From Octopus vulgaris (lineage: Eukaryota): DNA of 64,000 nt. The notes beneath the pieces were generated by a model. It was given only the letters and a program-made list of their open reading frames with translations. It ran no database searches and had not been told where the DNA came from. The position numbers were made by a program, and so were the translations under genes. This document shows positions 1-55,008 of this stretch, one piece after another. Numbering within the stretch: the stretch's first letter is position 1; each line of letters begins with the position of its first letter. The DNA lies in NCBI GenBank assembly GCA_951406725.2, contig OX597827.1, positions 2,170,001-2,234,000 on the forward strand, in the 5' to 3' direction.

Positions 1-644
1 GCGCCTGTTTGTCCCTGCGACGTGACGAGGGTAGTAGTGAGAGGAGGATGTAATGAGGGAGATACGAGTAAAAGTGAGGCGAGGTGGTCAGGTGAAGTGA
101 GGGAGGGCTAAGGAGGAGCGATGTGTGATAGTAGCGATGGTAATGCTGACGGTGATGATGGTGATGATGGTGATGATGATGGTGATGATGGTGATGATGA
201 TGATGATGGTGATGGTGATGAATCTACATGAAGGCGTTGGTCATATTGGTGTTGGCGCAGTTGATGGTAATACTGTTGTTGTTGTCGTTATTATTGTTTA
301 ATCACAAGTTGACCCTAAAACGCGCAACTTATGATCAAAGTCTCTCTAAGTGTGACCATCCACACTTTTACTGGTTTACGTTTTCTGAAGTGGACTTGCT
401 TCCGAGACAGTAGAGCCTGATAAGAAGCAGATTTGGGTAACATCAACCAATGCAGCCAAAAACTAGTTGACAAAATAACCCAAAACGCTCCTCCCGTGAT
501 CATCCCTCCTTTATGTACGTTCGTAAAAGATTGACAAAGCGATTCTTCTTCTAAGATATTAAAACTGATGTGATTCTAGGAGACTCGACCCTTATTTCTA
601 GCAAAACTAACAACCATGTAGAAGCACCTTTCTATTATCATTTA

Positions 645-22784: not shown

Positions 22785-23005
22785 ACGTGGCGAGATAGCA
22801 GAATCGTTTGTACATCGGTGGAAATGTATAATGGCATATCTTTTGTCTCTTTACGTTTTGCGTTCAAATTCCACCGAAGTCGGCTTTATCTTTCATCATT
22901 TCGGAGTCGATAAGACAAGTGTCAGCTCAACACAGGGATCGTCGTAATTGAATAACCCCCTTCCCGTCAAAATTTCAGGGCGTATCCCTATAGTAGACAA
23001 GGTTA
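22785..23005 (+). mobile_element. SINE family B, degenerate
   Basis: ggcgagatagcagaatcgtt...gttcaaattccaccgaagtcggctttatctttcatc...aaaatttcagggcg. Confidence 0.7.
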
Positions 23006-23049: not shown

Positions 23050-23670
23050 ACATGCGCTGGCAGAATTAATAGAACATCAGAGAAATTGCCACGCGGTATT
23101 TGTTCAGGCAGCGAGCTTGGCAGAAACGTTAGCAGTCCGGGCGAAATGCGTAGCCGTATTTCGGCTGCCGTTACGTTCTGAGTTCAAATTCCGCCGAGGT
23201 CGACTTTGCCTTTCATCCTTTCCGGGTCGATTAAATAAAGTACCGGTTTCGCACTGGGGTCAATCTAATCGACCTAATCCATTTGTCTGTCCTTGTTTGT
23301 CCCCCTCTGTGTTTAACCCCTTGTGGGTAGTAAAGAAATAGGTATTTTGCCCGTCGCTACATTCTGAGTTCAAATTCTGCCGAGGTCGACTTTGCCTTTC
23401 ATCCTTTCGGGGTCGATTAAATAAGTACCAGTTACGCACTTAGTCCGTTGTGATCGACTTAGTTCGTTTGTCTGTCCTTGTTTGTCCCTTCTGTGTTTAG
23501 CCCCTTGTGGTTAGTAAAGAAATAGGTATTTGTTCAGGCTTTTTACATTCTTGAGTTCAAATGCTCTTGAGATCCTCTATGCGTTTCATTCATCCAGGGT
23601 CGGTAAAATAAGATGCCAGTCAAGTTCTTGAGTCTATGATAGCGACTAACACCCACACTTTTCAAAATTA
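23050..23670 (+). mobile_element. Old SINE B interrupted by a dimer of a LINE-tailed SINE-B variant (23107-23524)
   Basis: ggtatttgttca(ggc) occurs at 23095 and 23525; two ~185-bp units each end taaagaaata. Confidence 0.85.
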
Positions 23671-33439: not shown

Positions 33440-33632
33440 TTTAATTTTTTTAATTACTTTTTATTTTTATTTTTTGTTCTTTTTTTCCCCTTTTACGATC
33501 CCTTTTGATCGAAAACCTACGCCACCTTTTTTTTGTTTCTTTTGTTTTTTGTTTCTTTCATCCCCCAAAAGAAAAGCTCTACCTTGTAACTTGTCCCATC
33601 TGTGTGCAGCCCTGTGTGGCCAATAAAGAAAC
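33440..33632 (+). mobile_element. Putative 3' UTR end of a LINE (L1/Tx1-like)
   Basis: T-rich segment ending ...cagccctgtgtggccAATAAAgaaa before a microsatellite. No coding part is present, so the clade is inferred. Confidence 0.4.
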
Positions 33633-54409: not shown

Positions 54410-55008
54410 GGCGGTGAGCTGGCAGAATCGTTAGCATACCGGTAGAAATGCTTAGCGGTATTTCGTCTGCCGTTACGTTGTGAGTTTAAATTCCGCCGAA
54501 GTCGACTTTGCCTTTCATCCTTTCGGGCTCGATAAATTAAGTACCAGTTACGCACTGGGGTCGATATATTCGACTTAATACCTATGTCTGTCCTTGTTTA
54601 TCCCCTCTATGTTTAGCTCCTTGTGGGTAATAAAGAAATAGGTATTTCATCTGTCCTTACGTTCTGAGTTCAAATTCCGTCGAGATCGACTTTGCCTTTC
54701 ATCCTTTCAAGGTCGATAAATTAAGTACCAGTTACGTAGTGGTATCGATCTAATCGACTGGCCCCTTCCCCCAAAAATTTCGGGCCTTGTGCATAAAGTA
54801 GAAAAGAAATGTTAGCACGCCGGGGGTGAGATGCTTAGCAGTATTTCGTCTGTCTTTACGTTTTGAGTTCAAATTCAGCCGAGGTCGACTTTGACTTTCA
54901 TCCTTTTGGGGTCGATAAATTAAGTATCAGTTTTGCACTTGCCTCAATCTAATCGACTGACCCCTTCGCCCCAAAATTTTGTGCCTTGTGCCTACAGTAT
55001 TAAAGAAT
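54410..55008 (+). mobile_element. SINE-B array: LINE-tailed unit (to 54640), ordinary-tailed unit (54641-54810) and a further 5'-truncated copy
   Basis: ggtatttcRtctg at 54457 and 54641; tail taataaagaaata at 54628-54640. Confidence 0.85.

Follow-up and report, generated by a model that had tools for sequence, protein, structure and literature searches.

A 64,000-nucleotide stretch of Octopus vulgaris contig OX597827.1 (positions 2,170,001 to 2,234,000 of the forward strand; hereafter the window) contains an old short interspersed element (SINE) that is interrupted by younger copies of its own family. The family comprises non-coding elements of ~230 bp, built from a head, a core, a linker, and a tail, and occurs in high copy, with 81,208 exact matches to the tail genome-wide. 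A-box-like and B-box-like motifs, recognized by eye, flank the insertion site; the tRNA-like character of the head is read solely from these motifs, and ARAGORN and Rfam each returned 0 hits for it. The tRNA-derived octopus SINEs OK, OR1, and OR2, which Ohshima and Okada reportedly described in 1994, are possibly the same family. The interrupted locus is organized as follows, where TSD denotes a target site duplication and LINE a long interspersed element:

23054-23094, + strand: 5′ remnant of the old host SINE head, ending in a purine-pyrimidine (RY) pair, GC, before the cut; weak match to the head profile, just 7.3 bits
23095-23109, + strand: 5′ copy of the 15-bp TSD; exact repeat
23110-23155, + strand: head of the inserted SINE, with an A-box-like motif and the GCGTAGCC variant; profile match and variant frequencies
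23156-23281, + strand: core and linker of unit 1, with a B-box-like motif at 23181-23193; divergence from the subfamily consensus
23282-23340, + strand: tail of unit 1, Tx1-LINE-like, T-type; 37-49 positions identical to tails of LINEs from three families
23341-23524, + strand: unit 2, headless, 184 bp, with a core, a linker, and a T-type tail; more diverged from the consensus than unit 1 and hence older
23525-23539, + strand: 3′ copy of the 15-bp TSD; exact repeat
23540-23641, + strand: remaining core of the old host SINE; core-profile score 43.7 bits, 28% diverged from the family consensus

The host is split directly after its GC by an insert of 415 bp that consists, by profile matching, of a head, a core, a tail, a second core, and a second tail. 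The flanking repeat is GGTATTTGTTCAGGC, a 12-mer of which has only 2 occurrences in the window when both strands are searched; its final GGC may also represent the first bases of the inserted SINE. A preliminary description had proposed that a TSD breaks an old SINE here and encloses two ~185-bp units, and both proposals stand: the duplication is exact and 15 bp long, and a young head and two 184-bp units lie between its copies. Judged by variant frequencies, the GCGTAGCC head variant is typical of a young subfamily carrying tail X. Unit 1 diverges from the subfamily consensus by 3.7% at non-variable columns and 6% overall, unit 2 by 10.3% and 13%, respectively, and the two units differ at 25/183 aligned positions; one-step and two-step histories of this array are indistinguishable. 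GGTATTT stands directly behind all three SINE tails of the window (ends 23340, 23524, and 54640). A further old monomer of the same family occupies 22786-23001, 50 bp upstream of the host and beside an (ATT)n run, and a general repeat search over the whole window was dominated by microsatellites.

Genome-wide behavior was assessed in 158 evenly spaced 10-kb stretches (1.58 Mb; hereafter the grid) of the 2.8-Gb genome, with profiles built for the head, the core, tail X, and an older tail B. Among 134 tail-X hits, the 114 that follow a core and have their end intact were counted; their 3′ neighbors are an own-family core in 50 cases (44%), a partial head in 3, and other DNA in 61. Exact GGTATTT follows 44/114 of these tails, and for this reason the 3/3 of the window, correctly described beforehand, is not representative of the genome. 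A hand tally of the first 100 of the 81,208 tail matches gave a core next in 35 and other DNA in 65, and the tail followed by GGTATT and a base other than T has 2,768 exact matches genome-wide. With 61/114 and 65/100 tails in other DNA, the SINE is therefore not confined to its own family, and it is not strictly site-specific in the sense of inserting only in a target repeat. It is target-specific by a looser definition, which asks for >20% of flanks in one repeat (PMC4494074), since 53/114 flanks belong to its own family, although part of these may be co-mobilized or duplicated. Of all RY|GGTATTT sites in the grid, 49/111 are SINE core starts. The proposal that the SINE homes into its parent family thus survives as a motif preference with frequent self-hits and loses its exclusivity: inspection of the 3′ flanks, as had been suggested, places the 61 outside tails at degenerate look-alike sites and not at random sequence. 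The SINE favors a motif and often hits itself, and is no exclusive homing element. T-type copies also interrupt the SINE core on its antisense strand, which has a look-alike site of the form RY|GGTA (L231:2664-2878, - strand; G000:C1:1948006). The first tail search included GGTAT in its query and was biased; its loci were excluded from flank counts and kept in the array analyses.

The target rule emerges from the duplications themselves. In a test set of 65 terminal elements from the grid and a tail-only search, the TSD score reached the threshold of at least 9 in 36/65, compared with 1.8% of 600 shuffled pairs, so that copy-specific TSDs, which the preliminary description had singled out for checking, are present. 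They are 10-40 bp long (median 15 bp) and start exactly at the tail end in 22/36. An RY pair precedes 15/15 of the GG-starting TSDs at offset 0, against a background of 0.26, with two of them possibly representing one duplicated locus. The SINE RNA has TA where the target has this pair, and the RY pair therefore points to a nuclease. The first target bases depend on the tail subtype: in the grid, T-type tails precede GG in 20/35 cases, whereas C-type tails precede AG in 13/24 and GG in 2/24, and the same split is seen in the first 100 of the 81,208 matches (GG behind 21/36 T-type vs. 4/29 C-type tails, P=0.0003). TA-rich sites are used by both (7/35 T-type and 7/24 C-type tails). Both sites exist in the SINE itself: its head meets its core at GC|GGTATTT, and its head contains GC|AGAA. 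The latter is joined in 3/9 internal joins of C-type tails vs. 0/43 of T-type tails (P=0.004). At one locus (L061), a GGT behind the tail is missing from the 5′ TSD copy, as would be expected if it had been copied from read-through RNA, the one clear case of its kind.

Several observations concern individual joins, among them those of the second array of the window:

54411-55000, + strand: head, core, tail X, core, and tail B, followed by a partial head, core, and tail B; profile matches

Tails are joined at head position about 14, the AGAA site, at 54800-54840 in this array and at L090, L146, L151, L110, L268, L295, and L300; the tails at such joins are C-type, and tail B at 54805. At internal joins of L091, L213, and L225, the last 6 bp of the tail are duplicated, which suggests slippage at the start of reverse transcription. 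Tail-only pieces of ~20 bp are wedged at the GGTAT site between units at L110:1423-1448 and L246:about 200-220 (- strand).

We favor the reading, with a probability of roughly 58%, that a SINE with a Tx1-LINE-type tail inserts at RY|GGTAT-like sites and targets itself through a nuclease combined with RNA pairing. A coding LINE lies at the same base. Among three tail-sharing LINE families examined, only family 3 lies at the SINE site. Found via a tail variant, it gave 117 pattern matches, of which 100 were listed and 80 had the CCGG tail form (hand tally); among the matches listed, a SINE core comes next in 74/80 of these ends, which makes the family target-specific by the definition above, and the CG variant of the site in 45/80. 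A full-length copy (L287) separates a SINE head from a core, is flanked by a TSD of 16 bp that falls at the base used by the SINE insertions, and encodes an endonuclease (PF03372) and a reverse transcriptase (PF00078) in shifted frames; the search for a coding LINE with this tail at the same SINE position, recommended at the outset, thus yielded a family whose tail is near-identical. Its protein is 46-59% identical to that of family 1, whose second open reading frame (ORF2) carries endonuclease (PF03372), reverse transcriptase (PF00078), and zinc-binding (PF13966) domains and whose homologues include the Xenopus TX1 149 kDa protein (31% identity across 83% of the query, E 5.6e-57). By their ORF2 domains and this named homologue, families 1 and 3 appear Tx1-like. 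Family 1 targets TATC repeats and was rejected as the homing partner, with 0/19 located ends (20 loci) at the SINE site, as was family 2, which is dispersed, with 0/20 ends there.

A C-type SINE tail and the tail of family 3 are identical at 41/49 positions. Against the T-type tails of the window, however, the tail of the non-homing family 2 scores about as well as that of family 3, and the SINE tail is therefore not assignable to the homing LINE alone. The proposed capture of a tail from a site-specific LINE is accordingly upheld insofar as the tail is common to Tx1-like LINEs, and qualified in that the homing LINE is not its sole match. No LINE was seen in the sequence inspected at 20 of 842 tail-pattern matches, other tail patterns for the homing LINE returned mostly SINE mutants or few matches, and no homing LINE was found in the 1.58-Mb grid. 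Target choice could, on the other hand, reside in nucleases only, with several Tx1 partners, each specialized for one tail variant and for a cutting site of its own, and without RNA pairing. The endonuclease is described as mainly setting target choice in PMC4494074, at least three tail-sharing families have different targets (TATC repeats, dispersed sites, and the SINE junction), and further tail variants occur at ATT repeats. We regard this as unlikely, given that tail-pattern searches and the grid yielded no LINE with an AGAA target or a T-type tail, that the GGT of L061 is not target-derived, and that the homing LINE is about 90% site-specific whereas the SINE is loose. For the favored combination of nuclease and RNA pairing, an older, GG-using form of the LINE is a candidate driver of the SINE.

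The tail-sharing LINEs offer additional observations, and one of them is represented in the window:

33480-33632, + strand: 3′ untranslated region fragment of family 1 (Tx1-like LINE) in a TATC microsatellite; 83-90% to copies linked to a coding ORF2

Family 1 is very young (98-100% over 321 bp at L161-L180) and often sits in TATC repeats behind another LINE (L164, L174, and L177). Truncated family 1 LINEs at L163 (near 1203) and L175 (near 878, both in element orientation) border at their 5′ junctions on one and the same segment of another short repeat and are possibly template-switch chimeras. Upstream of a family 1 LINE (L182) lies an open reading frame of 340 aa whose motifs suggest a putative mariner-type transposase. 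At L287, a 6,450-bp unit of SINE, full-length family 3, and flank appears in tandem, 100% identical over the 301 bp seen, reflecting either recent duplication or an assembly artefact. Relatives with a CTGG tail have their own fixed flanks, ACATGG or ATT repeats (e.g., G000:C10:24419209 and C5:78836660), and probably represent more site-preferring LINE families.

Self-insertions are visible where a host head, a TSD, and a new head can all be recognized. Three such cases occur in the grid (L070, L082, and L128), and the strict pattern has 151 matches genome-wide vs. 0 for a control. Visible hosts are old (28% diverged in the window, 19% at L128, and 12% at L070). Far commoner are seamless arrays with one head, which extend up to 10 units and vary in unit number and last-unit type. 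This variability, together with a lack of congruence across arrays between the rare variants of units 1 and 2 (P=0.25, n=11; P=0.17, n=41; low power), led us to reject a fixed dimeric, Alu-like composite; no single composite consensus was found, the outcome that the preliminary description had required of its proposal. Neighboring units differ from each other about as much as randomly chosen copies do (median 0.095 vs. 0.103), last units carrying tail B are older (8.2%) than first units (4.1%; n=13 and 32, respectively), and the p-distances of units 1 and 2 are correlated in tail-X arrays (r=0.27, P=0.014). In 23 arrays ending in tail B, the excess divergence of the head over core 1 is 0.052, compared with 0.019 in 56 monomers (P=0.0025), and the observed head divergence of 0.096 compares with 0.069 predicted from core 1 and 0.110 from the last core. 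Because these heads look host-derived, many arrays are likely seamless self-insertions. At core positions 2-8, 5/19 last-unit variants are shared with the first unit (0.9 expected), and 6/55 arrays (L018, L039, L045, L112, L139, and L211) have variants in common over the first 17 nt and 0-1 further on.

The same arrays could instead form during reverse transcription, when the enzyme switches at GGTATTT from one SINE RNA to another, or through read-through transcription of nested source copies, and be inserted whole; insertion into relatives would then occur only at the motif-predicted rate, without homing. At least 17 grid arrays that, by eye, have a single head and are enclosed as a whole by a TSD are in keeping with such an origin, as are the mutual unlikeness of the units, the exact TSD of the window despite a unit 2 that is 10-13% diverged, and truncated LINE ends joined to a SINE core often without a host head. 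Yet a whole-array TSD is equally expected from the old TSD of the host, which is why we dropped it as proof of an array moving as a unit; moreover, the heads are host-like, the shared variants are confined to the core start, and units 1 and 2 lack rare-variant congruence at the low power given above. On balance, assembly before insertion seems quite improbable as the general explanation. A third route, DNA-level tandem duplication or unequal exchange of one dimeric consensus as the main source, would account for the ABAB patterns at L239 and L219, for arrays of up to 10 units, and for variant sharing raised along the whole core, and PMC11481361 suggests unequal recombination for clam arrays of the form TSD-(SINE)n-TSD. 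That adjacent units are mostly unrelated largely refutes it as the main cause, the join falls at a single base matching the insertion consensus, and TSDs at look-alike sites are left unexplained; we consider it very improbable in this role. DNA-level duplication probably extends some long arrays. The evidence suggests that the arrays are a mixture of which self-insertion forms a large but unquantified part, so that the building of tandem arrays by self-insertion, as first proposed, is borne out by recurrent cases with a host head and TSD and only partly in its extent. One SINE array (L024) lies between two inverted tRNA-gene-like sequences, and short-period tandem repeats (about 67-69 bp and 247 bp) made of SINE junction pieces resemble SINE-derived satellites (G000:C5:87874181-87875491; C13:69036080-69036325; C1:12697592-12698357).

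From the sequences we infer a mechanism in which nuclease and RNA act together. A Tx1-type enzyme would nick after the purine-pyrimidine pair, and a SINE RNA that reads past its tail into GGTATTT would pair with the cut end to prime reverse transcription. Two outcomes of self-insertion would follow. In an old, diverged host such as that of the window, the new copy would keep its head and leave a visible TSD. If the host is instead a close relative, annealing would take place between the duplicated overhang and the identical stretch of the new cDNA, whereby the host head would be kept and a seamless, headless 184-bp unit added. With the A-box-like motif on one side of the site and the B-box-like motif on the other, the full promoter would be rebuilt by such a seamless join. 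Arrays would in turn be a source of further RNA whose tail is followed by GGTATTT, creating a feedback loop. A more far-reaching version, which we put forward tentatively and with some doubt, is a closed, RNA-steered loop: the landing site read into the RNA would steer the next insertion, the site class (GG, AG, or AT) would be inherited, the arrays would feed themselves, and the family would also serve as a landing pad for a Tx1 LINE with the same tail.

Several observations weigh against combined nuclease and RNA targeting. On the RNA side, templated bases are clear in 1 case only, with 2 weaker ones (L225 and L214), and no SINE RNA 3′ ends were seen; two unstranded RNA-seq runs of another organism label showed no SINE start or end points and are uninformative. 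On the enzyme side, several tail-related LINE families have different targets, and the subtype-dependent sites could therefore reflect different enzymes. SINE tails are rarely found at the CG site variant (15 among the first 100 non-G joins, from a total of 2,393), which contrasts with the 45/80 listed ends of family 3, and the young CG-using LINE is for this reason probably not the driver of the SINE; the CG-variant marker is carried by 20/56 young monomer heads. Truncated family 3 fragments lack an upstream host head in 5/6 cases, and no TSD was found around composites of truncated family 3 LINE and SINE. As for the arrays, visible self-insertions (3/~166 junctions) occur no more often than do insertions at RY|GGTAT sites outside the SINE (roughly 9-10/490), and real homing therefore depends on the seamless arrays. 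In these, variant sharing between first and last units is raised over the rest of the core too (62/409 vs. 33 expected). The head marker is significant only with search-derived loci (1/20 vs. 21/57, P=0.008), standing at 1/7 vs. 15/35 in the grid alone and at 3/8 under a wider class. The head divergence of B-ending arrays follows that of core 1 (rho 0.44) more closely than that of the last core (rho 0.28, not significant), an excess in the head is not seen in X-ending arrays (P=0.12), and the ABAB arrays (L239 and L219) reflect later duplication.

If targeting by nuclease and RNA pairing is true, a passenger RNA helps to choose the site of a LINE enzyme via a few bases behind its tail, and ~10^5 natural insertions render the respective shares of nuclease and RNA pairing directly measurable. 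Dispersed SINEs could furthermore be converted into tandem arrays without recombination, and the copy counts and ages of this SINE family would be distorted by hidden self-insertions.

Related behavior has been described elsewhere. No description of a self-targeting octopus SINE was found in the literature searched; subscription journals and repeat databases lay outside this search, so that a prior description is possible, and the available text of PMC13282606 does not mention "target" or "nested." Clam (S. broughtonii) SINE arrays (PMC11481361) resemble those of the octopus in a first unit with a full head, head-truncated further units, and one TSD, but are attributed to recombination and constitute 3% of SINEs, and the part of that paper available mentions neither a site-specific LINE nor an insertion consensus. 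Rodent SINE multimers and satellites (PMC10702118) form similar arrays, with no targeting rule mentioned in the text at hand. In L1 priming, the 3′ end of the RNA is reported to pair with the nicked strand (PMC3649969), and RNA-target annealing is proposed for SART1Bm and R1Bm (PMC7265360); in these systems, 3′ pairing is reported or proposed to aid priming and shape site choice, as it may in the octopus SINE. They are, however, LINEs with fixed targets, whereas the pairing sequence of the octopus SINE would come from its own landing site. The preference of the Tx1 clade for repeats is exemplified by Tx1L in Tx1D and by Kibi and Koshi in microsatellites (PMC4494074), comparable to family 1 in TATC repeats, although these are LINEs only, without a partner SINE as target. 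The closest parallel is SINEU/Tx1-Mar of crocodilians (PMC4494074): in both systems, a SINE and a Tx1 LINE share a target in an abundant repeat, and tandem insertions accumulate at one site. The crocodilian target is an unrelated Mariner element, and the tandem copies there sandwich the TSD. In the octopus, by contrast, the target is the SINE's own family, the units are headless and seamless, and more than half of the insertions lie at degenerate outside sites. The octopus SINE thus works like SINEU/Tx1-Mar, but with its own family as the target and with loose specificity.
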